In this document: in pieces, positions 8,762-48,707 of the stretch | How the letters are laid out: every line of letters starts with the position of its first letter | How positions within the stretch are numbered: the stretch's first letter is position 1 | Assembly: GCA_965231815.1 (NCBI GenBank) | Contig: OZ246890.1 | Coordinates: 2,833,388-2,897,387, forward strand | From: Acidimicrobiia bacterium | GTDB lineage: Bacteria > Actinomycetota > Acidimicrobiia > Spongiisociales > Spongiisociaceae | Direction: 5' to 3' | Length of the DNA stretch: 64,000 nt | Program-made: the position numbers and the translations under genes | Notes under the pieces: model-generated | Databases searched by the model: none | Seen by the model: the letters and a program-made list of their open reading frames with translations, nothing else | What the model was told of the DNA's origin: nothing

Positions 8762-10120
8762 TTATAGCGGCTTCATGATCCATGAGACTAGGTCCGGCCG
8801 AGCCTGGAGCTTCTGGAACCATTCCTTCTCAACCTCGAACACCCGCCAATCGGAATCGGCCGGGACGGTTTCCGCTTCGACCGCGTTCCTGTGCGAGTGG
8901 GCGATCGACAGGTCCATGTTGGTGGGAGAACCATCGGCGAAGTAATGATCCCAGGCGTCCTGGAACCGTACGTAGTCCTCGATGTTGAACAACTCCGCGA
9001 TCAGATCCTCGTCGCTCACCAGTACGCCGCCCGCTCGGCGCACCGCTTCGTGCATTGGCGGGAGCACTTCGTCGGTACGGTTGTGCAGGTAGCGGGTGGT
9101 CCGGTACCAGATGGCCAGCAGACGCAACGCTGTCTCCTCGTTCGCGGCCAACCAGTCCTCGGTGGAAGCGAAAGTGCTGTACCAGAGTCCGGTCGCTCCG
9201 AATGCCTGGAACGGGGCGGCCGACACGAACTTGTCTCTCAGGTCAGGAGCGGTCAGCATCCGGTGCATCTGGATGCTGTCGCCCATGTGGTAGTCACCCT
9301 CCCCGGCGATGAACGAGGTGGAGGCAACGTTGATGTCCGCGAAGCCGATGATCTCAACGTCGTCGAGGGTGAGCCCGCCCTGTTCCAGCAGAGCCTTGAG
9401 GGTCGGAACACTGCCTGGGTCCCAGATTGTGAAGCTCCGTCCGGCGAGGGACGCGGAAAACTCCCGGTTGGCCTCGTCCAGATCACCGCCTGCGTCAACG
9501 AAGAAGTCGAGCCACGGCTTGTGTACCGGCCCGCCGACTTCGGGATCCGCGCGGCCTATCACCTGGAAACCCCTCCATTGGTATGACGTAATCCAGTTCC
9601 GGAACTCTGGAATGCTCTCGTACACACCGAACGCGCAAGCCGGGCAGGAGGCGATCACGTCAAACTCGCCTCGCTTCAGAGCAGCCGTGGGGAAGAAACC
9701 CTGGCTCGAGATGTCAAGTTCGATGTTCAACTCATCGGCTATGCCAAGCTGCTTGGAGGCGGCCCACAGGTTGAATGGATAGAACGGCCCGCCGTTGATC
9801 CGCACCGTGACGAGTGGCGCGTCCGGGATCATCGGCGCCATCTCATCCTCTTCCTCCGGCTCCACGAGCACCTCGCGTACGATCTCTCGGATCACCGTTG
9901 TCGGAGGCGCGGTCGTGGTGGGTCCGGCTGTGGTGGTAGGGGCCGCGGTCGTCGTCGGCGCCAGGGTCGTGGTCGGCGCGGCTGTGGTGGTAGGGGCCGC
10001 GGTCGTCGTCGGCGCCAGGGTCGTGGTCGGCGCTGGCTCGTCTGCCCCACAAGCGGTCGCTACTAGGGCCACCACCGCCATTATAGAAAATAATCTCCAC
10101 CGCTTGAGCGAGCTTCTCAC
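8762..10120 (-). CDS. ABC transporter substrate-binding lipoprotein (NMT1/SsuA/TauA-like) with Thr/Pro-rich linker
   Basis: Lipoprotein signal (VALVATACG), (TTTAAPTTT)n linker, then a type-2 periplasmic binding fold; adjacent to two SsuC-like permeases. Confidence 0.7.
   Translation of the reverse strand: MRSSLKRWRLFSIMAVVALVATACGADEPAPTTTLAPTTTAAPTTTAAPTTTLAPTTTAAPTTTAGPTTTAPPTTVIREIVREVLVEPEEEDEMAPMIPDAPLVTVRINGGPFYPFNLWAASKQLGIADELNIELDISSQGFFPTAALKRGEFDVIASCPACAFGVYESIPEFRNWITSYQWRGFQVIGRADPEVGGPVHKPWLDFFVDAGGDLDEANREFSASLAGRSFTIWDPGSVPTLKALLEQGGLTLDDVEIIGFADINVASTSFIAGEGDYHMGDSIQMHRMLTAPDLRDKFVSAAPFQAFGATGLWYSTFASTEDWLAANEETALRLLAIWYRTTRYLHNRTDEVLPPMHEAVRRAGGVLVSDEDLIAELFNIEDYVRFQDAWDHYFADGSPTNMDLSIAHSHRNAVEAETVPADSDWRVFEVEKEWFQKLQARPDLVSWIMKPL
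9928..10035. repeat. perfect 54-bp tandem duplication (x2) inside the SBP linker-coding region
   Basis: GGCTGTGGTGGTAGGGGCCGCGGTCGTCGTCGGCGCCAGGGTCGTGGTCGGCGC occurs twice head-to-tail, encoding repeated TTTAAPTTT linker units on the minus strand. Confidence 0.8.
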
Positions 10121-11066: not shown

Positions 11067-11971
11067 TTCCCCAACATGTGGCCGACCATGCCTTTTCTAG
11101 CCCTAGGGCTCCATCGTGTCAGTCGCGAGGCGGCAAACCGCACCGACTGATCGAAGATCACGGCCAGCGAGCAGAAAATGAAAACGATCAGAACGATCGA
11201 AGCGGTGTCCAGATAATACGAACCCCTGCTGATCATGATGTATCCGAGACCTTGCTGGCTTCCAGAGAGCTCAGCGGCCACGTCGAGTCCCCAGGCGTAG
11301 GCAGCCCCGAGCCGGACCGACGAAATGAGATGCGGTGTTATGGCCGGCATCACGACTGTCCGGTAGATCCGAAACCGCCCGGCCCCTGCGGTCAGGGCGG
11401 CCTTTACGTAGATTTGCGGGACATTCCGAACCGCTTCGAGGGTCGTCAGGCTCAACAACAGGAAGATACCTATCGCCACCAGGGCGACCAAGCGCACCAT
11501 CTCAACCCTGAACCACAGGATCATCAGAAAGATGAATGCGATGAACGGTACCGGGCGGACCAGGTTGTCGAGAGTGGCCTCGAAGTAGCGACGGACCGCC
11601 GGGCTGTAGCCGAGTAGGAGGCCTGCCGAGATCCCGGATAGGCCGCCGATCGTCAGGCCGATCAGTACGATCCGCAGAGAAGTCCAGAGAGCACCGGGCA
11701 GATCGTCCCGGAGCTCTACTCCACTATTGAACACGGCTTCAGGCGAAGGCAGATACACCTGATCGATCCGAGAGAACCCCGGCTCCCCTGTTGTGAAGAA
11801 CACTCGAAGAGCGGAGGGCAGGCTCTCGGGCTCGATCGGCATCTCTCTAGTGAGGAGGAACCACACGACCGCCAGGATTATCGGCACCACCGCGGCATGA
11901 GCGATCAGGAGGGACTGACGCGAGAAGCGCGCCTGGCCGAGCAGCGCTAGCCGACCGACACCTATTCCCAT
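11063..11971 (-). CDS. ABC transporter permease (SsuC/TauC-like)
   Basis: Paralog of the adjacent permease (same EAA loop, ALTAGAGRFRIYRTVVMPAITP); 6 predicted TM segments. Confidence 0.8.
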   Translation of the reverse strand: MGIGVGRLALLGQARFSRQSLLIAHAAVVPIILAVVWFLLTREMPIEPESLPSALRVFFTTGEPGFSRIDQVYLPSPEAVFNSGVELRDDLPGALWTSLRIVLIGLTIGGLSGISAGLLLGYSPAVRRYFEATLDNLVRPVPFIAFIFLMILWFRVEMVRLVALVAIGIFLLLSLTTLEAVRNVPQIYVKAALTAGAGRFRIYRTVVMPAITPHLISSVRLGAAYAWGLDVAAELSGSQQGLGYIMISRGSYYLDTASIVLIVFIFCSLAVIFDQSVRFAASRLTRWSPRARKGMVGHMLGN

Positions 11972-12305: not shown

Positions 12306-12740
12306 ATGAGGCGTCGAATTGTTCTGGGGATCGTTCTCCTGCTGCTCGCTGCATGCGGGACCGGCTCGGGCCCGGCCGCCACCACTACCACCTCGACCTC
12401 CACCACACTGCCACCTACCACCACACTGCCTCCGACGACCGTGGTGGCGCCCACGGAAGGGCTTCCGGATGACTACCCGCCTGAACTGGTTCCGCCCGGT
12501 ACGACCTCGGTCTACTGGGAACCGACCGGCGCCGGTACCGACGTTTTCTTCGAGTCCTCCGCTGGTTTCGACGAGGTTCTCGACTTCTTCACCAACGTAC
12601 TCGAACCGCCACTCGATGTCAGGACCGAGGACGGTGTCGAGCGGGCAATCTGGGTCTACAAACCCGGCGTGGAACACATCGCGGTCATCCTCGAATACGA
12701 CTCGGAAGGCCTCCACATAAGAGTGTCAGGGCTGTTCTGA
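12306..12740 (+). CDS. small secreted lipoprotein with Thr/Pro-rich linker, function unknown
   Basis: Signal peptide plus lipobox (LLLLAACG), TTTSTSTTLPPTTTLPPTT linker; GGAGGAAGG RBS. Confidence 0.5.
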   Translation: MRRRIVLGIVLLLLAACGTGSGPAATTTTSTSTTLPPTTTLPPTTVVAPTEGLPDDYPPELVPPGTTSVYWEPTGAGTDVFFESSAGFDEVLDFFTNVLEPPLDVRTEDGVERAIWVYKPGVEHIAVILEYDSEGLHIRVSGLF

Positions 12741-14393: not shown

Positions 14394-15323
14394 TTGCCGT
14401 TAAGCACCGTGACACCCGAGAACGACACCTCCGAGAAGTCAGGTCGCGTGGCCGGCCTGGAGCGCCGACGCCATCGGGTAACGCGCTCCCTGCTGGCCTT
14501 GCCGCTGGGGTGGCTGCTACTTTTTTTTGTTATCCCGGTATCGCTGGTGGTGGCTTACAGCGTCGGGATTCTGGCGACCTTCACCAAGGAGGAGGGGGTC
14601 AGCTTGGAGAGCTGGCGGCTCTTCCTGTCCGGGGAAAACGTCTACATGCTGCTGTTCCTCAAGTCATTCCGGATGGCGTTGATCGTGGCCGTGGTGGTGG
14701 TGATCGCCGCCTACCCCATCTCCTACTTCCTGGCGATGATCGCCGACAAATACAAGTACTCGTTGCTGCTATTGATGATCGCTCCGTTCATGACCAACTT
14801 CTTCATGCGGGTGATGGCCTGGAAGGTGTTGCTCGGCAAGCAGGGGGTGATCAACTCCTTCCTGGTTTGGTCGGGTCTCCGCGAAGTGGGGAATCCCATC
14901 GAGAGCCTTGCCTTCGGCGAAGTCCCGGTGATGATAGTGTTGGGATACGTCTGGATTCCCTTTGTGATGCTCCCTATGTTCGCAGCCATGATCAGTATGG
15001 ACCGCCGGCTGCTGGAGGCGGCCGCCGACCTAGGGGCGAGCCGATGGCGGGCTTTCTGGAAGGTGACCTTCCCGCTCAGCCTCCCCGGAGTGGTGGCGTC
15101 CTTCTTCTTCGTCTTCATCCCGACCATCGGGGAGTTCGTGGTGCCCAAGCTCGTTGGTGGGACTAGGGGTTACATGTTCGGGAGCGCCATCGACGACCTG
15201 TTCGGAATGGGCCTCGACTGGCGCACCGGCTCCGTACTTTCCCTTTGGCTGGTTATGGCCGTGTTCGTACTGGCTCTGGTATTCATGCGGTTGGTACGCT
15301 TCGGCAGGTTGGCAGAGTCATGA
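14394..15323 (+). CDS. ABC transporter permease (PotB-like)
   Basis: 6 TM helices and an EAA motif region (EAAADLGASRWRAFWKVTFP). Confidence 0.8.
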   Translation: MPLSTVTPENDTSEKSGRVAGLERRRHRVTRSLLALPLGWLLLFFVIPVSLVVAYSVGILATFTKEEGVSLESWRLFLSGENVYMLLFLKSFRMALIVAVVVVIAAYPISYFLAMIADKYKYSLLLLMIAPFMTNFFMRVMAWKVLLGKQGVINSFLVWSGLREVGNPIESLAFGEVPVMIVLGYVWIPFVMLPMFAAMISMDRRLLEAAADLGASRWRAFWKVTFPLSLPGVVASFFFVFIPTIGEFVVPKLVGGTRGYMFGSAIDDLFGMGLDWRTGSVLSLWLVMAVFVLALVFMRLVRFGRLAES

Positions 15324-16201
15324 TCGACATCGCCACCTCCCGGTGGGCCAAACGAGCCCTGATAGCGGTATTTATCTTCGAGATAATCTTCCTCTACGCC
15401 CCCATCACCATGCTCTACATTTTCTCATTCAACGAGGGCACGGTGGTGGGGTTCCCGTTCGCCGGTTTCACCTTGGACTGGTACAGGGAGGCCCTTACCA
15501 ACCGAGGTCTCCTGCTTTCTATGAGAACCAGCGCAACGATCGCCCTCATGTCTAGTACTGCATCGATAGTGGTCGGCCTCTTGATGGCCATCCCTCTGGC
15601 CCGGCGCAAGTTCAAGGCAAAGGCGCCGATCATGGCGCTGGTGCTCAGTCCTCTCGTGGTACCCCATCTCGTGTTCGGGGTTGCGTTGCTGATCACCTTC
15701 AGGAGCGTTGAGGTTCTGACCAACGGAGCTTTCGAGTTCCCCTTATCACTTCCTTCCGTAGCGATTGGCCACGTCGTGGTTTTGATGCCGCTTATAGTCT
15801 TGATCCTGATACCCCGTCTACAACGAATCGATGCTCACCTCGAGGAGGCGGCCGAGGACTTGGGCGCCAGCGGGTGGCGAACCTTCCGGAGCGTGATCCT
15901 TCCACTGATCGCGCCGGCTCTGATGGCGGCATACGTGATCTCGTTCATCATCTCGTTCAACGAGTTCGCGGTGGCGGTATTCGTGAGCGGACCTACCACC
16001 ACCTTCCCGATCTACGTGCTGGCCCAACTCCAGTATCCGGTGGACGTGCCCCAGGTCATCGCTATCTCGGTCATCGTCGTAACCATCTCCCTGCTGGTGG
16101 TGGTGGGCGCCGAGGTGCTACGGCGAGTGTTCGAGCGGCGGTACCGGGTACTGAACCAGACCGCCGGACTGCTCGGCGTGGCCGACGCCGATACGGAGTG
16201 A
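15320..16201 (+). CDS. ABC transporter permease (PotC-like)
   Basis: Start set at the ATG overlapping the upstream stop (ATGA). EAA motif (EEAAEDLGASGWRTFRSVILP). Confidence 0.8.
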   Translation: MIDIATSRWAKRALIAVFIFEIIFLYAPITMLYIFSFNEGTVVGFPFAGFTLDWYREALTNRGLLLSMRTSATIALMSSTASIVVGLLMAIPLARRKFKAKAPIMALVLSPLVVPHLVFGVALLITFRSVEVLTNGAFEFPLSLPSVAIGHVVVLMPLIVLILIPRLQRIDAHLEEAAEDLGASGWRTFRSVILPLIAPALMAAYVISFIISFNEFAVAVFVSGPTTTFPIYVLAQLQYPVDVPQVIAISVIVVTISLLVVVGAEVLRRVFERRYRVLNQTAGLLGVADADTE

Positions 16202-16232
16202 GCATGAGCGTCCGCCGGGAACGGAAAGCGTA

Positions 16233-17990
16233 ATGTCGGATCGGGCATCTTTGCTCCAGCCCTACTCCCGGAAGACTCACGCTTGGGCGGGTGTCGATCT
16301 CGAACGCAACGTCGAGATGCAGACCAGGGACGGAGTGACGTTGAGAAGCGACATCTACCGACCGCTCGGTGACGGCCCGTGGCCGGTCCTGCTCCACCGA
16401 ACACCCTACGGTAAGGACTTCGTCCACGACGGTCACTACTTACACCCCGGCTGGTACGTACGGAGTAGCTTCGTTGTGGTGGTACAGGACGTGAGGGGCA
16501 GGTTCGGATCGGATGGCGCTTTCACTCCCTATCTCAACGAGGCGTCCGACGGATACGACACGGTGGAATGGGCGGCCGGTTTGGAGGGTTCCAACGGCCG
16601 GGTGGGAATGTACGGGGCGAGCTATCCAGGGATGGTCCAGTATCTGGCGGCGGTCGAAAGCCCTCCGAGCCTCGGAGCGATCTCTCCCACCGTTGCCGCT
16701 GCCGACCTGTACAGCCATTGGACCTACGAGGGGGGCGCCCTGCGCATGTTCGTCCCCCACTGGACGGCTGCCCTTCTTATGGAAATCGGCATGCGGCGTG
16801 GCCAGCCCGATCTGACCGCCCGCGGTAGGGCTATCAGGTCAGTGCCTTCGCAGGCGGGTGCATGGCTGGGCTCGGCGGCACCGGTGGAGTTGGATCCGCT
16901 CGAGCACGCCGACTTCTACAGGGAGTGGCTGGAGCATCCCACCAATGACGCTTTCTGGAAGGAACGCAGCGCTCTCCACCGCATGGACTCGGTGCAGTGC
17001 GCGGTTCTCCACATCGGGGCCTGGTTCGACACCTTCCTCGAAGGCGCCCTAGCGGCCTACCGGGAGTTGGCTTCCCGACCGGACGGCCCTGAGCAATGGC
17101 TGATCATCGGTCCGTGGGGACACCTCCCGGGCGGTGAGCGTATAGGAGACCTGATTCTCGGACCTCAGGCCAGAGGTACTGTGAATCTCGACCAGGTTCA
17201 GGTCGACTTCTTCCACCGCCATCTCGGTGCGAGCACTTCGGCAAGCGACGAGAGTCGGGTCCGCTACTACGTGTTGTTCGAGAACCGCTGGCGTGACACC
17301 CCGACATGGCCGCCTTCCGGGACAGAAACCACTCTCTATCTCCGTTCGGATGGAACCGCCAACACAGTGGGCGGTGACGGCCGGCTCGATCAGCTACCTC
17401 CGGAGGCGCCGGAACCGGCTGACCTGTATCACTACGTTCCCCGCATCCCGGTGGCGGCAGCCGGTGGACACACCTGCTGTGACGAGAACGCCATGCCGGC
17501 CGGACCGCGCAGCCAGCACTTCCTGGAGAGGCTGCCCGAAATACTTGTCTACTCGACCGAGCCTTTCGCCGAAGAGGTCACTATCGCCGGTCCGGTCACG
17601 GCCCGGTTGTGGACCGCTACCGAAGCGGTCTCGGCCGACTACGTAACCCGCCTCTGCATGGTCCGCAACGGCAGGTCGCTGAACATCAGCGACGGGATAA
17701 GGCGGATGCCCGCCGAGGACCTTGCTCAGGCGCGGGACGGGGATGGTGTAGCTCAGGTTGAGATTCGGATGCAGTCCACCGCCGCGCTGATCCGCCCCGG
17801 CGACCGGTTGCGTCTTCATGTCACCAGCGGCGCCTTCCCGGCTTTCGACATCAACCCGCAGACCGGGGCCCTGCCCGCCACGACCCCGACCTGGGACGGG
17901 ATGGCTGCCATGCACGGTGTCTGCCACGAGCCGGGACGGGAGTCATCGCTAATCTTCACACTGACCAAGGAGAGGGATCATGACGGCTAG
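16233..17990 (+). CDS. CocE/NonD family alpha/beta hydrolase (S15 X-Pro dipeptidyl-peptidase-like)
   Basis: N-terminal LHRTPYGKD signature and GASYPG nucleophile elbow. The large C-terminal beta-sandwich domain is typical of CocE/NonD. Confidence 0.75.
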   Translation: MSDRASLLQPYSRKTHAWAGVDLERNVEMQTRDGVTLRSDIYRPLGDGPWPVLLHRTPYGKDFVHDGHYLHPGWYVRSSFVVVVQDVRGRFGSDGAFTPYLNEASDGYDTVEWAAGLEGSNGRVGMYGASYPGMVQYLAAVESPPSLGAISPTVAAADLYSHWTYEGGALRMFVPHWTAALLMEIGMRRGQPDLTARGRAIRSVPSQAGAWLGSAAPVELDPLEHADFYREWLEHPTNDAFWKERSALHRMDSVQCAVLHIGAWFDTFLEGALAAYRELASRPDGPEQWLIIGPWGHLPGGERIGDLILGPQARGTVNLDQVQVDFFHRHLGASTSASDESRVRYYVLFENRWRDTPTWPPSGTETTLYLRSDGTANTVGGDGRLDQLPPEAPEPADLYHYVPRIPVAAAGGHTCCDENAMPAGPRSQHFLERLPEILVYSTEPFAEEVTIAGPVTARLWTATEAVSADYVTRLCMVRNGRSLNISDGIRRMPAEDLAQARDGDGVAQVEIRMQSTAALIRPGDRLRLHVTSGAFPAFDINPQTGALPATTPTWDGMAAMHGVCHEPGRESSLIFTLTKERDHDG

Positions 17991-36312: not shown

Positions 36313-36849
36313 GTGAAGTCGGCGAGCGACATTTCATGGCCCGGTGAGGCTGTCTTCTGTTCGGCTTGCGGTACCCGTCTTGAGCGTGCGTACCTGCACT
36401 CGCGGGAGCGGGGAGTATGCCCGGAGTGTGGCCGGATCGACTTCCGTTCGCCCTCCGTGGCGGTGGCGGTGGTGCTACGCGACGATGCAGGCCGTGTCCT
36501 GATGGTGAAGCGAGGGCCGGGTTCGTCGCGGCCCGGTCGGTGGTCGATTCCCGCCGGGTATATGGATTATGGCGAGGAAATCAGGGAGGCAGGCGCCCGA
36601 GAAGTCCTTGAGGAGACGGGCTTGGTGGTCGAAGTGGGGGCGCCGATCTTCGTTGCTACCAATTTCCACGACCCGCTCAAAGTGAGCGTGTGTGTCTGGT
36701 TCGCGGGATGTGTGGTGGGTGGCCGGCCCGCCGCCGGGTCGGATGCGGTCGACTTGGGATGGTTCGCTCTCGATTCCTTGCCCGACCTCGCTTTCGAAAC
36801 CGACACCGAACTGTGTCGGCTCTTGCGATCCGATGACCTTTCCGGTTAG
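36313..36849 (+). CDS. NUDIX hydrolase with N-terminal zinc-ribbon
   Basis: CxxC...CxxC (CSACGTRL...CPECG), then the Nudix box GYMDYGEEIREAGAREVLEETGL. Confidence 0.8.
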   Translation: MKSASDISWPGEAVFCSACGTRLERAYLHSRERGVCPECGRIDFRSPSVAVAVVLRDDAGRVLMVKRGPGSSRPGRWSIPAGYMDYGEEIREAGAREVLEETGLVVEVGAPIFVATNFHDPLKVSVCVWFAGCVVGGRPAAGSDAVDLGWFALDSLPDLAFETDTELCRLLRSDDLSG

Positions 36850-37007: not shown

Positions 37008-37241
37008 TTGCTGTCTCTGATGGTGTATTGTAGGTGTATGGCTCGTACGAACATCGACATCGACGACGCGGCTTGCGCAGCGGTGATGCGGCGTTACCGG
37101 CTGGACACCAAGCGTGAAGCCGTGAACATGGCGTTGCGAACACTGGCCGCCGAGCCCCTCACATTGGCGGAGGCCCGCGCGATGCGTGGTTCGGGCTGGG
37201 TGGGTGATCTCGACAAGATGCGGGCCTCCCGCCAGTTGTGA
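37008..37241 (+). CDS. vapB: type II antitoxin VapB (ribbon-helix-helix-like)
   Basis: 77-aa protein (MARTNIDIDDAA...) immediately upstream of, and overlapping (ATGA), a PIN-domain gene. Confidence 0.65.
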   Translation: MLSLMVYCRCMARTNIDIDDAACAAVMRRYRLDTKREAVNMALRTLAAEPLTLAEARAMRGSGWVGDLDKMRASRQL

Positions 37242-37627
37242 TCCTCATCGATAACTCCGCCTGGGTGGAATTCTTGCGCGGGACGGGAAGCCCTGTGTGC
37301 AATTGCGTTGAGGATTTGCTGGATACTGAGATAGCCACCTGCGACGCGGTACGCATGGAGGTTCTGGCCGGTGCCCGTGATGAGCAGCACCTCCAGTCAT
37401 TGCGCCGCTTGCTGGCGCGAGCCGTAACCCTTCCGACTAGACCGTCAGACTATGAGGATGCGGCACTCCTGTACCGTTCGTGCCGCCGCGGCGGCGAGAC
37501 GGTTCGCAAACTGATCGACTGCTTGATCGCCGCAGTCGCACTGCGGAATGGCGCCTCGATCCTGCACGCCGATAGCGACTTCGACGTTATCGTCCGTCAC
37601 AGCGCTCTTGATGTGGTCAACGTCTGA
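37238..37627 (+). CDS. vapC: type II toxin VapC (PIN domain ribonuclease)
   Basis: MILIDNSAWVEFL... has the N-terminal Asp of the PIN family and further conserved acidic residues; 129 aa. Confidence 0.8.
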   Translation: MILIDNSAWVEFLRGTGSPVCNCVEDLLDTEIATCDAVRMEVLAGARDEQHLQSLRRLLARAVTLPTRPSDYEDAALLYRSCRRGGETVRKLIDCLIAAVALRNGASILHADSDFDVIVRHSALDVVNV

Positions 37628-38254: not shown

Positions 38255-38584
38255 TCAGGTAAGGTAGAATACCCCTTCATCGCTCCTACCGAAAGCGAGT
38301 AGCTGCTCGTAAGCCCTACGCAAAGCGGATTCGATCATTTCCGTTGGCGCATTTCTGATTCGGACGCTAATCAGCTTAGGTGGCCACCCGCGCTGTTCGC
38401 TCAGATCGATATAGTCCCTGTCCTTGCTGGTAACGATGTAGTCATAATGCTTGGCGTATTCCCAGACCGACCGATCATCTGTGCTTTTACGCCCAATGTC
38501 AAAGACGTGAGTGGATCCAGGGTATATATCTGCCAGCATGCCAGGCAACTTGTCGGAGAGCATCTCGTCGAACAGCAGTTTCAC
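38255..38584 (-). CDS. DUF5615 family PIN-like putative toxin
   Basis: VKLLFDEMLSDKL matches the DUF5615 N-terminus (MRFLLDENLS). GTG start forms a GTGA overlap with the upstream DUF433 stop; an alternative ATG start lies at 38638. Confidence 0.6.
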   Translation of the reverse strand: MKLLFDEMLSDKLPGMLADIYPGSTHVFDIGRKSTDDRSVWEYAKHYDYIVTSKDRDYIDLSEQRGWPPKLISVRIRNAPTEMIESALRRAYEQLLAFGRSDEGVFYLT

Positions 38585-38832
38585 GGGTTCGGGGGTCTCC
38601 TGGGAACCATTTGCTCGTCTGTTACGTAGTCGTAGCACGCGAGTAGGTCCTCTTCGGTCAAACGGGGGAACTCATCAAGCAATTCCCCGTGTGTCATGCC
38701 GCCAGCCAGGTACTCGAACACATCGAACACTGTGATGCGCGTGTCGCGGATGCAGGGCTTGCCGAACCTGCGATCCGGGTCGATGGTGATGATGTCAGCG
38801 TGCTTCACTACTTTATACATGCCCAGTCCCAT
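38581..38832 (-). CDS. DUF433 family putative antitoxin
   Basis: 83 aa. DPDRRFGKPCIRDTRITVFDVFEY is typical of DUF433, which is usually paired with DUF5615. Confidence 0.6.
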   Translation of the reverse strand: MGLGMYKVVKHADIITIDPDRRFGKPCIRDTRITVFDVFEYLAGGMTHGELLDEFPRLTEEDLLACYDYVTDEQMVPRRPPNP

Positions 38833-39284: not shown

Positions 39285-42200
39285 TCAGCCGGCGGGGTGT
39301 GGGTCGTCTGGGGGCAGGGAGGGGGGCAACCCGTCGACGGTGCGGACGGTGCGGACGGACACGGTGATCAGCCTGCATAGGTGTTCGATCAGGTTGTAGG
39401 GCTGGTTTGCCCAGGTGTGCCACCGGTTCGGGTCGCGGGTGATCCCGCTCGTTTTGTCATGGGTAGCCCGTAGACGGTCGATGGCCCAGCCGAGCGGGGT
39501 TTTCCCGTTGATCACATACTCGTGCGCTTCCGGGGGGATGTTTTCGATTCGGCACCGGTCGTTGACCACGAGCACGCTCAGGTCGTTGGTGAGTTTCTTG
39601 TCTTCGCCGCGGGTTCTGGCCCACCGTATCGGCTTGTGGATACGGTACACGTCGGGGCTGTCACGGTCCGGGTCGGCCGCCTGCCCGTCTACCAGCACTC
39701 GCACATGCGGATACGGTTCGCAGATTTCGTAGCCGACGTGTAGGTCGATCAGCTCCCGGCCCGCCTGGGCGAACGGCCAGAAGTCGTCGGTGTAGGGGAT
39801 ACGGGGTAGACCTTTGCGTAGATCGTTCGCGTATCTGGTTCGCCAGTCGGGGGCGTGCATCACTCCGTATATGTATGCCCAGATGTGGTCTTTGGTGATG
39901 GCAGGGTCCTGGTAGCGGCTGCGGAACTGGTTGAGGCACCAGTCGGTGATGTTGTCCACCCGGCCTTGGTCGTCGGGCCGGTCGCCGGTGGGGTCTAGGT
40001 CCCCCAAGTCCAGCATCGGAGTAGTGCCGGCGTTCATCGGCTGGTCTCCTTCGGATACGTGTACCGGGGGAACGCTTGTCCGTTGCCCATGAATTGGATG
40101 TCCGGAGGGATGTCGCTTATCAACGTCGAGAAGGGGCCTTTCCAGCCTGGTCCGGTCATGCTGATCACCTGATTCATCCGGTCGGGTGGGTGTATCGGGG
40201 GAACGCTTGTCCGCCTGACAGCAGATGCAGGTCCGGGGGACAGTCGCTGACGAGTGTTGAGAACCCGACCGATGCTCCCGGCCCGGTGATGTAGATGACC
40301 TGGTCGGTCGGTCGGTCGGTCGGTCGGTCGGTCGGTCGGTCGGTCGGTCGGTCGGTCGGATTATGATAGGAGGTTCTTGGCATCACCTGACCTTTGGACA
40401 CCAGCTCCAGGTCCGGTGCTGTGTCCGTCACCACCGTCGAGAACTCACGGGTCGATCCCCTCCCCGCTACGACTATCGCCTGGTTAGCGCCGTCGGGACG
40501 GTGAGGGAACATGAGCGGGACACGGTAGACCCGAGTGATGAACAGCGGGTCGTAGTAGAGCCACATCTTGGTGAACGGTCGGTAGTGGACTTCCCGAATG
40601 TTCCGTTCGTCGTAGGTGGCGGGCAGGCCGCGTCGTAGCGGTCGTCGCAGGTCACCCGTCCATTTGATGACATGTGGTCTGACGTTTCGGGTGGCTTGTT
40701 CGACTGTCGCCTCCCCGGTGCTCACACGGTGTCGTTGGTGTTCGTATTCGTCGACCATTGCTTCGGCCCGTTCTTCCAGACCGTCCTTGTCGTAGTCGTA
40801 CATATATGGGTCGCGACCGGTCGCGAGGCCGAGCGAGTAGATGTGGAACACGGTCGGGGAGTCAGCGCCCGATCCGGCCGACCCGCGCAGGGCTGCCTGT
40901 TTGGTGGTCTTGTCCCCGAGTGGCATTAGGTGTTGCCAGGTGGGGTCGGATTGGTTGATCCAGTCGTGGTTGCTGTCGGGTTTGATCCGTTGCCAGCCTT
41001 CCCCGTCGCCGCTCGTCGGCGCATGCCCCATGTCTTGGAGGGCCTGTTTTTCTGCTCTGCGGTCAGGTAGTCGCCAACATCGTGGTACCAGATGCGGGAT
41101 TGGCCGTCGGGATGTGGCTGCTGGGGGTGTTTGATCAGTACGGATACGAGTATGCCCACCCTCGTGCTGCTGCCGAAGACGTTGCCCTTTTCCCGCCTCC
41201 TGGCTTCTCCGGAGAGGCGGGCGTCGCCGCGTAGGTTGAGTAGGTACAGGCTGTGGTATTCGTCGGCTAGGCAGGCGCGCATGCCTGATTCGGCGTTGCC
41301 GTCGAGGTAGCCGTTGGGTGTGACGAAAGCGACGATGCCTTGGTCGCCGATGCGGTCGGTCGCCCACCTGATCGCCAGCTTGTACAGGTCCATCAGTTGC
41401 CTGCGGTTCTGGGTCTTGCTTTTCGCTGCGTAGGTGTCGCGGATGCGTTCCCGCAGTTGTGGGTAGACGATGTTGGGGTTGTCCTCAGCAGCGGATCTCT
41501 GTCCTGCGGACCAGGGCGGGTTCCCGACTATGATGTCGATGCGTTGGCCGGCTTGTTGTTCGGCCCGTCGGCTGTTGCCTGACAGGGTGTCGAACTGTTG
41601 CTGGTCGGGTTGGCTGTAGAACGTATCGCAGAGGACGATGCCTGCGAATGGCTTGTAGTCGCTATGTGGTAGTCGTTGGCGCCGTCCTTCTTCGATTTTG
41701 ACGGCGGCGATCTAGTAGGCCAACAGCAGCATTTCGTTGGCGTATATCTCGGCTGTGTATTTGCGGTCCAGGTCTTCGCCTGTGATAAGCGGCCGGCCGT
41801 TGCTGTCGTTGATGGTGAGTAGCCGGTTGATGAAGGTGCCGGTTCCGGTGAACGGGTCCAACACATGAACGTCGGGGTCTGATAGGGCCTTGCCGAAGTG
41901 GTGCTGGGAGAGCCGGTCGGCTGATCGGAGAACATAGTCCACCACCTTGATGGGGGTGTAGGCGACGCCGAGCCGGTCGGTTTCCCGTTTCATGCCTTTC
42001 GCGAAGAACGATTCGTACAGTTCGAGCAGGATTTTGAGGCGGCCTTCGGGGTCGGTGACCTGGCGGACCCGTTCGGTCACGCTGTCGTATAGGCGGTCGA
42101 GGCGGGCGGTGTCGGCTCGGATGTGGTCCCGGTCCAGCGTGTCCACCATCTGGTTCAACGCAGCAACAACCGGGTTGAGGGAAGCGAACGCGGCGGAGCC

Positions 42201-44588
42201 GAACAGGGCGTTGAACACGGGCAGCGTGACTATGTGGCAGGCCAACATGTCGACGAGGTCGGCTTCTTGTAGGTGTTCGTTGATCGTCTGACGCATCTCT
42301 GTGAGGAACCGTCCGAACGCTTCCGCAGTGTGCGGACGGGATCTGATGAGTCGGCTGATGCGGGCTGCGACGGTTCGGGTGACTTCTCCTACGTCGTCCC
42401 CCCAAGTCGCCCAATACGTGCGGTCCCCGCAGATTTCGACCAGCGCCGACGCGATTTCGGAGTTCATGGGGAGGGTCATCTGCGCAACGGTGGCAGGGTC
42501 CAACTCCCCACCGTTATCCGTGCCGTCGTCGTCGCCGTCGTCGCCGTCGTCGGTGCCGCCTATGACGTTTATGGGTGGTTTGCCGCCTTTGTCGGCGGTG
42601 TTGACCCACGCGTTCATCCGTTCGTCGTGGGATCGTAACGCCCGGATCACGTCCCAGACTGGCTTGAACCTTGGGCTGCGCAGAACGGCGTCGTCGATAC
42701 GGGTTTTCCCTTCGGGCAGGATGACGGGCAGGATGATGTAACCGCGTTCTTTCCCCGCGGCGGTTCGCATGACCCGTCCGACGGCCTGGACGATGTCGAC
42801 GATCGATCTGCGGGGGGCTAGGAACAGCACCGCGTCGAGGGCGGGCACGTCGACGCCTTCGGACAGGCAGCGGGCATTGGACACGACCCGGCACCGGCCG
42901 TCGGGGATGTCGGATTGAAGGTCGGCGATGGCGGTGGCCCGTTCCGACGCCCGTGTGGTTCCGTCCACATGGGTCACGTCCAACCCCAGCCGGCCGTTGT
43001 CGGCGCCGGAGGGTCGCTGTTCCGTGTATCCGTCGATGACGGGTTCCCACAGGCGGGAGAGCTGCCGCGACGCTTTGATGGTGTTCTGGAACGCTATAGC
43101 CCGTTTCACGGCACGGCCGGGGTTCGGGTTGGTCTGGCCGGTGCGCCGACCGTGGCCGGGTCCGCGGGAGAGCGGGTCGGCCATCGCGTCCCAGCAGCCC
43201 AGCATGGCCACCACATCGTCCGCTCGGATTTCTTCTCCGTGGTCCAGCTGGAGGGTGTTGACAACGTTGTCGGCCAGGTCGCCGTAAAGGCCCCGGTCGA
43301 CTGCGACTATCGCTACCTGATAGTCCGACAGCCATCCCCCATCGACTGCGGCCTTGAATGACATCTCATAGAACACGTCCCCGAACACGTTCGGGTCGTC
43401 CATCGAGAACACTGCGATGTCCTTCGAGCGGGCATTCCGTCTGGCCTGTGGGGTGTACAGGCGGGGCGTGGCGGTCATGTACAGACGGCGGTGTGCCCGT
43501 ATCTTCTGGTTGTCATGCACGAGGGTGAACGGGCTGACACCTTTCGTGGCGGTTTCGACTCCGGTGGTGCGGTGCGCTTCGTCACATACGACCAGATCGA
43601 ACACCGCTCCGGACTGCTGCTGCGCCGTGGCGACCCGGTCGAGTGACTGATATGTGGAGAACACCACCGTGGTCGCCCCGCCGCGGGTGGGGTTAGTGAG
43701 GGCTTGGGCTATATCTTCGGGGTCGGTAGTGACCGGAATCGACAGCTCAGTCAAATCCGACGACTCCGCGCCGCCCCGTTTCCCCGCGGTCCGATCCGAG
43801 CAGACACCCACATATGTTTGGACGGTGCGCCGCTGCGCCGCCCATTCCCGCATCGTCTGCCCCAGCAGCGAAATGGACGGGACCACATACAACACCGTCC
43901 CATCTGCGGGGACGGTCTGTTCGGCGATCCAAAGCGTCACCACGGATTTGCCTGTCCCACAAGGAAGGATCATCTGTCCCCTGCCGGCGCCAGCGTCGAA
44001 ACCGGCCACCACCGCGTCTATGGCGTCCTGCTGGTAGGGGTGCGGTTCGTACAGCACCCCCGGGATCGGGGCACGGTCGGGATCAGCAGCAAGTTCGGTC
44101 CAGGGAACCGGCCACTGCGCCAGATCCCCGTGATACAGCACACGGCATCCCGCCCCCTTCAGCTTCTTCGCCCCGGCCCGGGTAACCGGCGGAGAAGCCC
44201 GCGACGTCGAAATGAACATGCGATGCTGGAACCGGGCTGTGTTCGCTTTCGCCAAATACGAGTCCACATCCGCTTCCGGTGCGCGGGCGTCCCGATAGCA
44301 TTTCGTCTGGATCGCCCACCGGTCCCCGTCAGTGTCTGTCGCTATCAGGTCGATGCCCGAATCGGGACCGTCCCGTCCTTCCCACTCCCCCCAGGGAACC
44401 ACCTGGGTGAACCGGCCGCGGAACTCGCCCGGATGCTCTAGCAGCACCCGACACATCAACCGCTCGAACCTTCCGCCCACCCCACGCTGCGACGACGCCG
44501 ACCGCCGTATCGTCTCCAACGCCGCGTCCAGACCCGACAACGGTGGGACCAGCCGTTTCGACAGCCGCACCGCACCCATGTCACTCAT
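39285..44588 (-). pseudogene. disrupted Type ISP-like restriction-modification gene (Mrr-like nuclease - SF2 helicase/translocase - gamma-class N6A methyltransferase - C-terminal TRD)
   Basis: Nuclease motif (GIDLIA...WAIQTKCY) and helicase motifs (GTGKS; VVCDEAHRTTG). MTase motif I (VLDPFTGTGTF) lies before an in-frame TAG at 41709-41711, and motif IV (IIVGNPPWSAG) lies after it. There is a frameshift at a T5/A5 run near 41046-41050. A (GGTC)14 tract lies at 40302-40357. Three degenerate ~114-nt coding repeats follow (FSTxVxDxxPDLxLxSxGQxxPRY), with 1-nt frameshifts near 40180 and 40050. The C-terminal fragment (YIYGVMHAPDWRTRYANDLRKGLPRIPY) is typical of Type IIG/ISP enzymes. Confidence 0.7.
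40302..40357. repeat. (GGTC)14 tetranucleotide simple-sequence repeat inside the R-M coding region
   Basis: 14 uninterrupted GGTC units, read as (PTDR)n on the minus strand. Unit gain or loss changes the downstream reading frame. Confidence 0.85.
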
Positions 44589-44649
44589 CGTCGGTCGCTC
44601 CCCTCTGTTCGGCTAGCTTGGTCGGGTTGTTACCCACAGCGATCTGTAT

Positions 44650-45063
44650 CTGCCCCTGCACACCAGCGACGCCCGGCGATATCAACAGTTACCATCCCCA
44701 GCCAGGACCAGGTACCGTACTCGGCGCCCGGACGCTCGCAGAGCATTCGAGGGACGACCCCGAACGCTACACCAGCGCCAAGTCTCGCAGAAACTACGCC
44801 GGAACGTCGCCCATCACAGTCGCATCAGGCCGCAAACACGCCGTGGTCGCCCGCCACGTCCGCAACCGGAGACTCCACAACGCCCTCGACCAATAGGCGT
44901 TCTGTTCCCTAAACAACAGCCCAGACACCCGAACCTTCCTACGACCAAAACGAGCAGCCGACAACCTCCACCACCAAACACTACGAGCCCTCGCCAACCG
45001 ACTCGTAGGAACCCTCCACGGCTGCCTCAAACACCAAACCCCCTACAACGAACACACCGCCTA
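44650..45063 (+). pseudogene. IS110-family transposase C-terminal remnant with internal stop
   Basis: ...PGPGTVLGARTLAEHSRDDPERYTSAKSRRNYAGTSPITVASGRKHAVVARHVRNRRLHNALDQ*AFCSLNNSPDTRTFLRPKRAADNLHHQTLRALANRLVGTLHGCLK matches the conserved IS110 C-terminal region. The N-terminal DEDD half is absent. Confidence 0.5.
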
Positions 45064-45120
45064 GACACACCGAACCACCATCGACCAAACCGCAGCTTCA
45101 CATTTACACTCCTGGGGTGT

Positions 45121-45330
45121 CTAGCCCTGATTATTCAGGCTTCCCACACACGGGGGCATGTAACGCCAGTTCAACCCGAGTATTGGGGGAAACCCGCCGT
45201 TCACCCTGCAGGTGAATATCTATACCGGGCCGGGATGGGAAACGTCGATAGCTGTATTCCCTGGTCAGGGTACGAGTATGGTCTACTCCGCTCATCCTCC
45301 AAACCCCCGTCCATGAATAATCGGGGCTAG
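45121..45330 (-). mobile_element. full-length CTAG-terminated MITE-like element (family R1) with ~19-bp terminal inverted repeats
   Basis: Read on the minus strand, it runs from CTAGCCCCGATTATTCATGG through ~170 nt to CCTGAATAATCAGGGCTAG. The terminal inverted repeats are 17/19 identical. Confidence 0.5.
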
Positions 45331-45346
45331 AGGCGACTTACGTCTA

Positions 45347-45700
45347 CGACCCGGCAAACTTCACAACTGCTTACGGTACGCACGTAGCGGTGGTGGATGT
45401 GGATGTTGACACCGGCAAGATCGACCGGGTCAAGTACGTGGTGGTGGACAATTGCGGCACCATAATCAATCCGTTGCTGGTGGAGGGCCAGATACACGGA
45501 GCACTCGCGCAGGGCCTCGGATGTGCCGCTCGAGGAGTTCGTCTACGACGACGAAACCGGGCAGCTTCTCTCCTCGGCTCTGATGGATTACTTGCTGCCG
45601 TCTTTCACGGACCTGCCCGACTTCGAGACACATCACCTGGAAACCCCGTCACTCCACACCGAAGGCGGGTTCAAAGGTATGGGTTAAGCAGGGTGTTTAC
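45347..45700 (+). pseudogene. frameshifted C-terminal fragment of a molybdopterin dehydrogenase large subunit (CoxL/XdhA family)
   Basis: VDVDTGKIDRVKYVVVDNCGTIINPLLVEGQIHGALAQGLG, then in another frame EEFVYDDETGQLLSSALMDYLLPSFTDLPDFETHHLETPSLHTEGGFKGMG. Only ~110 codons remain, directly abutting the MITE. Confidence 0.45.
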
Positions 45701-46214
45701 CGTCTCTAGCGGCGCTGACCAACGCGGTTAGCGCCGACCTCTCCCACCTCGGTATCGAAGCGAACTAGACGCCGGTGACTCCTAGCCGGTTGCGGGCGGA
45801 TGAGGTCAAGGGCGCTCTAAGATGGCGGCCAAGCCTTGACCACCCTCGATGGTGGTAGAACCCGGCTCGTAGGAGTCGATCTTGCTGAGCGAGCCTCCGT
45901 ACGTTCTTATGGCAGTCCGAGCCGCCCCGACCACTGCGGCAGGATCCACATCAAGCATTCCGTTCCTTTGTGCGCTCATTTTTCTTTTTCGTTACCGGAC
46001 CCAGGATATTCGGTGGACTTGCACCGCATCGTGTAACCGGCCCTCCCTTGCGACGTTTGATTCATGTGACACGAAAGGCGGAAGGCGGCGGCGCACAGGC
46101 CCGGGTTGTCGTGTGCTGTCCGTTGGCCCTGATGGCCACAACGGTCCTTCCGCTGTCTCCGTTTCATCATGGTCGTTGAGTACAGCCGCCGGGTTGTGTA
46201 ATCTCAAATGCCAC

Positions 46215-48707
46215 ATGACCAAGAAGACACCCACCCGCAGGGCAGCGGGGCGGAGGCGGGTGTCAAAAGTACATGCCGGCAGTCCGGGCAAAAGATCACG
46301 GGCCAAGGTTGCCGCCGGCTCCAAGCGTACGCAACGGAGCGGCAACGGAACGCGCCCGTCCGGGCCCCGACTGGTTAGCCAACCGGCAACTCGGCCCTCG
46401 GAAACGCGATCGAATGCAGCAGGGGGCCTCTTTGATCGTATCCGCTTCAGTTTCGGTCGCCAGACCCACAATATGGTCGGATTGGCCCTCGCTATGGTCG
46501 GTCTGTTGACGGTGATCGCCTTCTTCGGAGGCGCCGGTCCGGTCGGACGGTGGTTACTGGGGGTTCTACGCTTTCTGGTCGGGGTTTGGGTCTACGTTCT
46601 GCCCGCCCTGTTCATCGGTATCGGCGGCGTGTTGCTGCTCGGTCGTCATCGTGATGACTTTCGCCGGGTTCTGGTCGGTTCCGCTCTATCCTTGGGCGGC
46701 GGGGTGGGTCTGTTCCACCTGATCATGGGGGGCGCCGCGCTGGCCGGCAACAGCGAGGTCGTCCGGAGCGCAGGTGGCGCGATCGGATCACTCGTAGCGT
46801 TTCCGCTGCAACGCCTACTCGGGTTCTGGGGGGCGTTCCTGGTGGTCTCGATGCTCACCGCGCTAGGGATCATGATCGTGACGAGGGCATCGATCAGGGA
46901 GGTGATGGTTGCGGCCGGTGGTCTGACACGATACGGCGCCGGATACCTCCGAGCGAGGTGGGTGGCGCGGCGCGCGGCGCGATCCGCAAATAGACCTCCG
47001 GCCAAGAGGCCGCGCGCTCCCGGCGCACGCACTCGCAGAGTGGCGCGCCGTCCTCCGAAGGTTAAGGCGCCCTCCGTTCCGCCTGATCGTCGATCGCCCC
47101 CCGGTGACGAAGTAAAGGAGGAGAAAGCTACCGTCCATGCGGAGGGTCGGATGGCCCAGGTAGTTCGGTTACCCAAACGACCGGCCCCGCCTGCGAGTCC
47201 TGACGGAGATGGCGACCATGATGACACCCCGCCCCCAACCCCCCATCCGGTAGACAACGATGAGGGTTATTCCTTTCCGCCCGTGTCGCTGCTCGAGCGC
47301 GGCGGAAAGGAACGTCAGACCAGGGAAGGGCTTGACGAGACGGCTCGCCAACTTGATAACACACTGCGTCATCACAAGGTGGGTGCCCGCATAACCAACG
47401 TCGTGCCGGGTCCTACCGTGACCCGTTTCGAAATCGAACTGGAACCAGGGGTCAAGGTATCACGGGTTACCAACCTTTCCGGAGATATCGCCTACGCGCT
47501 GGCTACCCCGGATGTCCGGCTGCTGGCCCCGATTCCGGGCCGCTCGGCGATCGGTGTAGAGGTGCCTAATCGGGTTCGGCGCTTGGTTACCTTGGGGGAT
47601 GTTCTATCGTCGCCGGAAGCAGCCAAGCATCGCCATTCCCTGGCTGTAGGGTTGGGTGAGGATATCTCGGGCAAGCCGGTCCTGCTCAACCTGGCGGAGC
47701 TACCACATGTCCTGATTGCGGGCGCTACCGGGGCAGGTAAGTCATCCTGCATCAATTCGATCGTCACCAGCATCTTGATGCGTACGGATCCTGAGGATGT
47801 TCGACTGATAATGGTCGATCCCAAGCGGGTCGAACTCGGCCAGTACAACGGGGTGCCCCACCTCCTTACTCAGGTTATATCGAAACCGAAGAGGGCCTTG
47901 GAGGCTTTGGAATGGGCGGTGTCCGAAATGGACCGTCGCTACGACCTGCTGGCGGAGGCGGGAGTTCGTGATATCGACAGCTATCGCAACCGGCTTGAGG
48001 ATGGCGAGCTAGCCGAGGAGCGGTTCGATCGTTTTCCGTTCCTCGTGGTCCTGATCGATGAGTTGAACGACCTGATGATGGTGGCTGGACGGGCGGTGGA
48101 GAGCGCCATCGTTCGGATCGCCCAGATGGCCCGGGCGGTAGGAATCCATCTGGTGATCGCGACCCAGCGACCCTCGGTCAACGTCATAACCGGAGTTATC
48201 AAGGCGAACGTTCCCAGCCGACTCGCTTTCTCGGTTGCTTCCCAGACAGATTCGCGGGTGATCATCGATACGATCGGCGCCGACAAGCTGGTTGGCATGG
48301 GCGACATGTTGGTGGTGACAGCTCTCGAGCCTCGCGCCAAGCGGGTTCAAGGCGCCTGGGTTAGCGAAGCGGAGGTCTCGGCCGTGGTGGACTGGGTAAA
48401 GGCCCAGAAGGAGGTCGAGTACCGTCGCATCTCGGAAGAGGTATCGGTAGAACGCCGAGCTAACGCCGAGGAACTGGACGGGGAGGATGCTGATCTGGTC
48501 AAGAGGGCTACCGAGTTGGTGGTTCGCTCGCAGCTTGGTTCTACTTCGATGTTGCAGAGGAGGTTACGGATCGGTTTCGCCCGAGCCGGTCGAATAATGG
48601 ACATTCTCGAGCAGAAGGGGATCGTCGGGCCTTCCGAGGGTTCCAAGGCTCGTACGGTATTGGTAACGATCGAGGAGTTCGAGAACCCGGAAGGTAGTCC
48701 GGTCTGA
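46215..48707 (+). CDS. ftsK: DNA translocase FtsK/SpoIIIE
   Basis: N-terminal TM helices, an R/P-rich linker, and a motor domain with Walker A (LIAGATGAGKSSCINS), FtsK alpha/beta motifs and a C-terminal gamma domain. Start set at MTKKTPTRR (the upstream 111 codons lack coding signal). Confidence 0.85.
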   Translation: MTKKTPTRRAAGRRRVSKVHAGSPGKRSRAKVAAGSKRTQRSGNGTRPSGPRLVSQPATRPSETRSNAAGGLFDRIRFSFGRQTHNMVGLALAMVGLLTVIAFFGGAGPVGRWLLGVLRFLVGVWVYVLPALFIGIGGVLLLGRHRDDFRRVLVGSALSLGGGVGLFHLIMGGAALAGNSEVVRSAGGAIGSLVAFPLQRLLGFWGAFLVVSMLTALGIMIVTRASIREVMVAAGGLTRYGAGYLRARWVARRAARSANRPPAKRPRAPGARTRRVARRPPKVKAPSVPPDRRSPPGDEVKEEKATVHAEGRMAQVVRLPKRPAPPASPDGDGDHDDTPPPTPHPVDNDEGYSFPPVSLLERGGKERQTREGLDETARQLDNTLRHHKVGARITNVVPGPTVTRFEIELEPGVKVSRVTNLSGDIAYALATPDVRLLAPIPGRSAIGVEVPNRVRRLVTLGDVLSSPEAAKHRHSLAVGLGEDISGKPVLLNLAELPHVLIAGATGAGKSSCINSIVTSILMRTDPEDVRLIMVDPKRVELGQYNGVPHLLTQVISKPKRALEALEWAVSEMDRRYDLLAEAGVRDIDSYRNRLEDGELAEERFDRFPFLVVLIDELNDLMMVAGRAVESAIVRIAQMARAVGIHLVIATQRPSVNVITGVIKANVPSRLAFSVASQTDSRVIIDTIGADKLVGMGDMLVVTALEPRAKRVQGAWVSEAEVSAVVDWVKAQKEVEYRRISEEVSVERRANAEELDGEDADLVKRATELVVRSQLGSTSMLQRRLRIGFARAGRIMDILEQKGIVGPSEGSKARTVLVTIEEFENPEGSPV

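Follow-up and report, generated by a model that had tools for sequence, protein, structure and literature searches.

What does a long, perfect tetranucleotide repeat do inside the target recognition domain (TRD) of a restriction-modification enzyme? The question is raised by a gene on the minus strand (39285-44588) of a 64,000-nucleotide stretch of Acidimicrobiia bacterium contig OZ246890.1 (GCA_965231815.1), the whole of which is hereafter called the window. [quoted passage not shown] A simple sequence repeat (SSR), with the unit GACC on the gene strand, lies within a series of three related cassettes that are read in different frames. The cassettes align to a beta-hairpin plus Loop VI, one of the three base-reading TRD loops of the Type ISP enzymes LlaGI and LlaBIII (PMC4872093). 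The reading that we favour, and consider likely, is that the SSR addresses a three-state selector of Loop VI cassettes in a Type ISP enzyme.

The repeat tract and its reading frames

The gene has the domain order Mrr nuclease, superfamily 2 (SF2) helicase, coupler, gamma-class N6-adenine methyltransferase (MTase) and Type_ISP_C TRD. Its N-terminal open reading frame (ORF) of 958 amino acids (frame A, 44588-41715) matches PF13156 Mrr_cat_2 (5e-18), ResIII (2e-21), Helicase_C (5e-10) and ISP_coupler (3e-35) in Pfam. This ORF includes the MTase motif DPFTGTGTF, and the motif GNPPWS and an Eco57I-family match (8e-9) are found downstream of the in-frame TAG that closes it. The Type_ISP_C profile is matched along the gene by its positions 2-157, then by two additional copies of positions 112-157, and finally by positions 163-339.

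Using Tandem Repeats Finder, we detected (GGTC)14.5 on the plus strand at 40302-40359 (58 nt, 100% matches, score 116), in agreement with the raw sequence. All 12 occurrences of (GGTC)3 in the window fall within this tract, compared with an expected count of 0.07 from 100 dinucleotide-preserving shuffles of the window, and Tandem Repeats Finder returned no second tetranucleotide tract in the 64 kb. The tract is perfect and far beyond chance. On the gene strand (minus) it is (GACC)14.5, a slippage-prone candidate frame selector that has a feature of contingency loci, namely a long perfect SSR within an ORF with a unit that is not divisible by 3. The other tandem repeats of the window, an 18/36/54-nt periodic repeat (9896-10059) and an imperfect (CCA)15 or 18-nt repeat (12378-12430), have periods that are all divisible by 3, unlike that of the GGTC tract.

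We searched for the cassettes with a hidden Markov model (HMM) of the module, run over all frames of all loci; an earlier regular-expression search had missed divergent ones. The three repeats are alternative cassettes of ~42 amino acids downstream of a conserved TRD core. Cassette 1 (NQAIVVAGRGSTREFSTVVTDTAPDLELVSKGQVMPRTSYHN, 40363-40491, minus strand), found by the module HMM and three-frame translation and aligned to LlaBIII 1334-1373, lies upstream of the tract and is translated along with the TRD core in every register. Cassette 2 (QVIYITGPGASVGFSTLVSDCPPDLHLLSGGQAFPRYTHPTG), which with its TGA (40176-40174) spans 40174-40301 on the same strand, shares the frame of cassette 1 when the tract has its present length. 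The ORF of cassette 3 (MNQVISMTGPGWKGPFSTLISDIPPDIQFMGNGQAFPRYTYPKETSR, 40034-40177, minus strand) lies one frame back from cassette 2, and its ATG overlaps the cassette 2 TGA (ATGA); both were again identified by three-frame translation and the module HMM. The cassette 3 TGA (40036-40034) in turn overlaps, also as ATGA, the ATG of a C-terminal half of Type_ISP_C with its own start (C-half; 250 amino acids, 39285-40037, minus strand), which is another frame back and in the same frame as the N-terminus of the gene. This C-half, delimited by the last segment of the Pfam profile and by the in silico registers, comprises the end of the TRD core and the 'guide' subdomain. The junction sequence has an AAGGAG Shine-Dalgarno (SD)-like motif (40046-40051, minus strand) 8 nt upstream of the ATG.

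The original prediction, made from the letters alone, had described 14 GGTC units at 40302-40357, read as PTDRPTDR and placed between the MTase core and three tandem TRD-like repeats. The perfect tract is real and slightly longer than stated, by half a unit and up to 40359, and PTDRPTDR... is its translation on the minus strand in the current frame. The repeats are also present, although they are not whole TRDs but sub-elements of a beta-hairpin plus Loop VI, and the tract separates the first of them from the second instead of preceding all three. A recent in situ triplication can be set aside as their origin: the three cassettes share a DNA identity of only ~65-69%, against no more than two lesions in the rest of the gene, and cassette 1 groups with the sole cassettes of single-cassette relatives.

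When we translated the tract registers in silico with these two lesions (described below) repaired, the present 14.5 units gave a polypeptide of 1471 amino acids ending in cassette 2, one unit more gave 1519 amino acids ending in cassette 3, and one unit fewer gave a fused enzyme of 1766 amino acids. The C-half fuses to cassette 1 on loss of one tract unit or gain of two. Type_ISP_C is fused to the rest of the enzyme in one of the three tract registers, and is a separate gene in several relatives.

We propose that gain or loss of 4-nt GACC units by slipped-strand mispairing would rotate the ribosome among three outcomes. The large polypeptide would end in cassette 2, or it would end in cassette 3, or both cassettes would be read off-frame as an unconstrained linker and followed by fusion to the C-half. 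The frame chosen by slippage would select the Loop VI cassette that completes the TRD core, and the unfused C-half would be a subunit in its own right, translated from its own SD and ATG. For the latter, termination-reinitiation or independent initiation at the SD-ATG fits better than programmed ribosomal frameshifting at the ATGA junctions, which would need opposite shifts, +1 and -1, at the two junctions to reach the C-half. We infer that switching takes place inside populations at a useful rate and that the split enzymes assemble.

In the window itself the switch is silent at present. Frame A is closed by a TAG nonsense codon (41712-41714, minus strand), the sole frame-A stop from 44588 to 41049, at a position that is a tyrosine in L001, L002 and more distant homologs (...LLAY[Y]IAAVKIE). 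In addition, a three-way DNA alignment detected a 1-nt deletion in an A5 run (41047-41051, minus strand) that is A6 in L001 and also longer in L002. The deletion moves the reading frame from A to C and so takes the MTase C-terminus, the TRD N-half and cassette 1 out of the N-terminal frame; frame C holds the remainder of the MTase, the TRD N-half, cassette 1, the tract and cassette 2. The 5.3-kb gene contains no stops besides those described here, leaving exactly two lesions plus the tract register. The window copy is not an intact expressible gene, whereas its orthologue in L002 is intact. As sequenced, any tract length gives the same truncation after 958 amino acids in silico, and none can restore the enzyme; other lesions had been suspected of silencing the switch, and these are the two that do. 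The still perfect tract and the small number of lesions suggest that inactivation is recent. A 5-bp GCAGA/GCAGA duplication as the cause of the frameshift near 41050 was rejected on the basis of the three-way alignment. Exact-protein look-ups with four window proteins returned no match.

Loop VI homology and selection on the cassettes

In sequence alignments to the solved structures, the cassette aligns to LlaBIII residues ~1334-1373, a span that includes the conserved beta-hairpin (LlaGI 1347-1358) and Loop VI (LlaGI 1365-1374) (PMC4872093). LlaBIII N1360 and LlaGI H1368 read the same target position (PMC4872093). Their column, which directly follows "PD[LI]", has E in cassette 1, H in cassette 2 and Q in cassette 3 and is among the most variable, and LlaGI G1372/Q1373 align with the variable "G-Q" segment of the cassettes. 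Across cassettes, framework columns (F, DL, P-R) are invariant and the columns of the hairpin loop and Loop VI are the most variable. Because of this homology and the concentration of cassette variability in Loop VI, the registers are predicted to confer different DNA target specificities in methylation as well as in restriction. The C-half is equivalent to the final part of the core and the guide subdomain, which does not read bases (PMC4872093).

Differences between the window and L001 were counted by codon position in the own frame of each cassette. At positions 1, 2 and 3, we found 5, 1 and 14 differences in cassette 1 (84.1% DNA identity), 3, 0 and 11 in cassette 2 (88.6%) and 3, 0 and 6 in cassette 3 (93.5%), compared with 150, 108 and 325 in the N-terminal part of the gene (83.4%; third-position fraction 0.56). 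Jointly, cassettes 2 and 3 show 6, 0 and 17 differences (P=8e-5), and in the linker frame these substitutions hit codon positions 1 and 2. The independent pair L013/L016 gave 1, 1 and 9 and 1, 0 and 6, and both pairs pooled gave 8, 1 and 32 (P=6e-9). Since the substitutions cluster at own-frame third positions, cassettes that are off-frame in the fused register evolve as protein-coding sequence in their own frames, under purifying selection.

The frames themselves are also unusually open. In six distinct genes, the three frames after the SSR remain open for ~41-62, 78-95 and 120-207 codons, respectively, or into the fused C-half, and each closes just past a cassette. The out-of-frame stretches of these genes amount by our count to roughly 700-850 stop-free codons in total, against a background of 0.0225 stops per off-frame codon in the same genes; the out-of-frame paths are thus stop-free far beyond chance.

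These observations bear on the simplest alternative, a plain ON/OFF switch with one active register (the fused one in this clade), in which cassettes 2 and 3 are leftovers of duplication or recombination that serve as linker DNA. The original prediction had read the tract as a possible ON/OFF switch. It is true that the intact gene of L002 is in the fused register and that L001 is fused as well. However, no other part of the gene is as well conserved as the off-frame cassettes, at 89-94% DNA identity compared with 83% gene-wide, and their substitutions spare their own reading frames at the expense of the linker frame. Loci of the type of L018, L016, L013 and L017 have no fused register and carry the C-half as a separate gene, and cassette types are common to several loci and shuffled among them. 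We therefore regard a plain ON/OFF switch as unlikely. The idea of phase variation is supported, but with repeats in three frames, each followed by a stop, and with purifying selection on those that are off-frame, the device looks like a three-state module selector.

Tract variation and recurrence among relatives

A single scan of species genomes provided three loci from metagenome-assembled genomes of Acidimicrobiia/Acidimicrobiales, L009 came from a metagenome scan, and the LXNI and MKWU records come from metagenomes of Mediterranean sponges (PMC5099237, PMC5649159). The sister locus L002 is 95% identical to the window, which on this basis probably stems from a related Acidimicrobiia symbiont, and has the same tract with 21.75 instead of 14.5 units (28 nt or 7 units longer) between flanks that are otherwise collinear. 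It is a single intact ORF of 1730 amino acids in the fused register, in the order cassette 1, (PTDR)7, a 44-amino-acid linker and the C-half, and the linker is a hybrid of cassettes 2 and 3 read out of frame. Four indels separate the window from L002: an in-frame 9 nt, the 1-nt A-run deletion, the 28 nt of the tract and 131 nt. The first lies at 42522-42560 in a GAC/GGC-rich (Gly/Asp) repeat of the helicase-coupler linker and is ordinary triplet-repeat slippage that leaves the frame unchanged.

More distantly, L001 (79% identical) has three cassettes in the same three frames and (GCAGAGGG)3.5 at the tract site, which is also frame-shifting; it is in the fused register and has a TGG-to-TGA stop upstream. 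L009 (94% identical over the C-half) has (CAGC) repeated at least 30 times at the same site, ahead of an identical cassette 2. These three loci show that tract length is not constant among close relatives and that a single site has undergone more than one replacement of its repeat unit. Variation is also seen outside this clade. One gene was sampled four times, with cassettes 100% identical in DNA and tracts of 12, 15, 18 and 18 units; where 12 units (L018) are compared with 15 (L023), the flanks are identical too. Two further features of contingency loci are thus present, a length that differs between close relatives with conserved flanks and, in silico and in the repaired gene, a length that alters the product. 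This agrees with the proposal of a slipped-strand phase-variation tract in a restriction-modification gene, for which a single length fixed in all relatives had been named as the contrary outcome; the 21.75 units of L002 and the other units of L009 and L001 are the opposite of this. An apparent (GA)20 vs (AG)19 polymorphism between L019 and L020 is not real, as there are 19 units in each and the end of its contig truncates L019.

With the HMM and three-frame views, we found some nine distinct Type ISP genes, most of them in metagenomes of sponges, that have an SSR with a rotating-frame cassette array. In the common layout, about three cassettes come after a frame-shifting SSR and take up the frames in rotation, each soon closed by a stop. 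The SSR units include (GACC)n, (CAGC)n, (GCAGAGGG)n, (CGAA)n, (ACCCG)n, (AG)n, (CA)n and poly-C/G. In L013, L017, L018 and L023 the SSR immediately follows a conserved "MFP" motif, and there is no fused register because every register closes in one cassette. Arrays of more than three cassettes with extra SSRs are present in L020, L017 and L012, and L003 has five cassettes with one SSR only. The registers occupied in nature are cassette 1 (L026), cassette 2 (window, L013), cassette 3 (L018, L023) and fused (L001, L002). The architecture is not family-wide, since the relatives L006-L008, L010, L021 and L022 have a single cassette and no SSR. In L006 (5559-5654), a degenerate second cassette lies in another frame inside the long linker of homolog P0001 (HMM iE 1e-3) and resembles the remnant of an SSR-free array of two cassettes. 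In L007, a DDE_3/HTH transposase gene (2550-3608) is located between a large N-terminal gene and the Type_ISP_C-bearing gene.

Some loci contain homopolymers. Poly-C tracts are found at the 5' end of the large-subunit gene in L013 (C13, 1501-1513) and before or inside the arrays in L016 (C14, 1-14) and L020 (C17, 129-145), and appear to share the selector role of the multi-base SSRs. G9 in L018 (914-922), G9 in L023 (4130-4138) and G11 in L012 (1913-1923, minus-strand gene) lie within the MTase part of the large subunit and coincide exactly with a tblastn frame change; they may be a second SSR switch, of the ON/OFF type, upstream of the cassette selector.

The comparison also indicates that the C-terminal half is a separable subunit. 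Its homologue is a separate gene in L003, L012, L013, L014, L016, L017 and L018. In L012, L014 and L017 this gene is encoded by the other strand and diverges from the gene of the large subunit. In L013, L016 and L018 it comes after the array and has an SD and a start of its own. An SD and start comparable to those of the window precede the C-half in L002, L009, L013, L016, L017 and L018, and in the window clade the SD-ATG is retained while fusion is additionally possible. In L003 the C-half is encoded about 1.8 kb downstream of the array, behind an AAA_16 ATPase gene (a 444-amino-acid ORF, 15007-16341), and 20-23-nt tandem repeats are found at 14713-15011. The large-subunit gene of L003 is also split near 11540, beside an '...AGGGG' stretch.

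Recombination between cassettes suggests another alternative, in which they act as silent donors, specificity is changed by homologous recombination (gene conversion or deletion), and the SSR is incidental or only an ON/OFF gate. L002 has lost its 131 nt through recombination between cassettes 2 and 3, which produced an in-frame hybrid cassette. Cassette types recur across loci in differing orders (type T4 is always last where present), implying recombination over evolutionary time. Donors, however, need neither a three-frame rotation nor immediate stops nor stop-free off-frame paths from the SSR, and we noticed no invertase or recombinase gene or inverted repeats beside the arrays, although a systematic search was not made. 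We consider the donor explanation quite improbable. Finally, a neutral microsatellite that expanded in a decaying pseudogene, with an accidental frame pattern, might be suggested by the nonsense codon and frameshift that the window copy carries besides the tract and by gene fragments nearby (for example of MoCoBD_2), but it is very hard to reconcile with a 5.3-kb gene free of stops beyond its two lesions, an intact orthologue with a longer perfect tract in L002, a common site that is taken in many distinct genes by frame-shifting SSRs with differing units, and off-frame paths that are stop-free far beyond chance.

Several points weigh against a three-state selector of Loop VI cassettes, which nevertheless remains our preferred reading. 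The window copy is dead through the TAG and the 1-nt deletion, and only one of the three full-length members of its clade (L002) is intact, as the window and L001 carry nonsense codons. In this clade cassette 1 is always translated, so that registers 2 and 3 would hold two Loop VI modules. Some arrays are partly degenerate, with an internal stop in cassette 2 of L017 and a split cassette 1 in L013, and L026 differs in register from L018/L023 not through unit number alone but also through 2 nt in the flank. The sequences come without exception from metagenome assemblies, in which the SSR is the breakpoint of several contigs, and the selection tests comprise two sequence pairs with 41 substitutions.

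Known systems and genomic surroundings

Full-text literature searches found no paper that links Type ISP enzymes to SSRs or phase variation. LlaGI and LlaBIII (PDB 5FFJ, 4XQK) have the same domain order as the window gene. They are, however, unsplit single polypeptides with one Loop VI and no SSR, whereas here three Loop VI cassettes lie in three frames behind an SSR and the C-half can be a separate gene, in some relatives always.

Phase-variable restriction-modification is known mostly from host-adapted pathogens, and mostly concerns Type I and Type III systems with few Type IIG. SSRs occur in Type I hsdS genes (poly-G in NgoAV; GCAA[n] in Haemophilus parasuis and P. aeruginosa), where a frame change alters specificity (PMC7383803). 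As in our proposal, the SSR lies in the specificity determinant, and a change there gives an active enzyme of other specificity and not an ON/OFF switch. These hsdS systems have two states (full-length or truncated HsdS), whole TRDs and a separate S subunit, in contrast to three registers, sub-TRD cassettes and a single chain. An NgoAV-like arrangement, a separate two-TRD HsdS with the SSR between the TRDs, is not found here; no hsdS, hsdM or hsdR is involved, and the likeness is one of mechanism only. In three-TRD hsdS genes of Mannheimia haemolytica and Fusobacterium nucleatum, an in-frame SSR adds a TRD that is proposed to displace the upstream one (PMC7383803). This parallels the combination of cassette 1 with cassette 2 or 3 in the window clade, although the extended hsdS genes have one extra TRD, two states and no three-frame rotation and belong to another enzyme type.

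Type III mod phasevarions likewise have a long perfect tetranucleotide tract of strain-variable length in the MTase ORF (PMC5909438), but it switches the whole Mod ON/OFF, and the allelic TRDs are not selected by the SSR. The Type IIG enzyme Cj0031 of Campylobacter jejuni also has an SSR inside a single-chain MTase gene (PMC4889913). Non-binary expression from mod-gene SSRs in M. bovis was described in a 2026 preprint, with no cassette selection. The inverting Type I hsdS systems (SpnD39III of S. pneumoniae, Mycoplasma pulmonis) similarly keep a module library at one locus that gives several specificities, but switch by site-specific DNA inversion, in contrast to the reading-frame choice at an SSR proposed here. 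The Type III mod tracts of Haemophilus and Neisseria have AGCC/AGTC units, and a precedent in a high-GC actinomycete is the poly-G tract in pglX of the BREX-like Pgl system of Streptomyces coelicolor. Both Cj0031 and pglX are homopolymer ON/OFF switches with no alternative cassettes.

From these systems the proposed device differs in enzyme type, in switching sub-TRD loop cassettes, in using all three frames and in its split guide subunit. We give an even chance to the broader claim that it represents an undescribed architecture of sponge symbionts, in which an SSR addresses an array of one cassette per frame with staggered stops, forming a reversible specificity switch with three states, or of higher order with extra SSRs. 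Packing three modules into three frames, each with its own stop and all addressed by one SSR, would allow more than two states. If the cassettes set specificity, the arrays would be a natural library of interchangeable Loop VI elements relevant to the re-engineering of restriction specificity, an unaccomplished challenge (PMC4872093). A large subunit working with a guide subunit would be a new organisation for Type ISP enzymes. Defence genes are enriched in sponge symbionts (PMC5099237, PMC5649159), and the high-GC uncultured Acidimicrobiia of sponges would, if the reading is true, use contingency loci in the arms race with phages.

Around the gene, the region between it and a large FtsK-like ORF (45882-48707, identified by eye) contains gene fragments only (44600-45880), among them the MoCoBD_2 (molybdopterin enzyme) fragment at 45390-45731, which suggests local gene decay. 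On the other side, downstream of the gene, the minus strand carries a DUF433/DUF5615 pair (38255-38832), and further neighbours are a VapB/VapC(PIN) toxin-antitoxin pair (37008-37627) and a NUDIX hydrolase (36313-36849).

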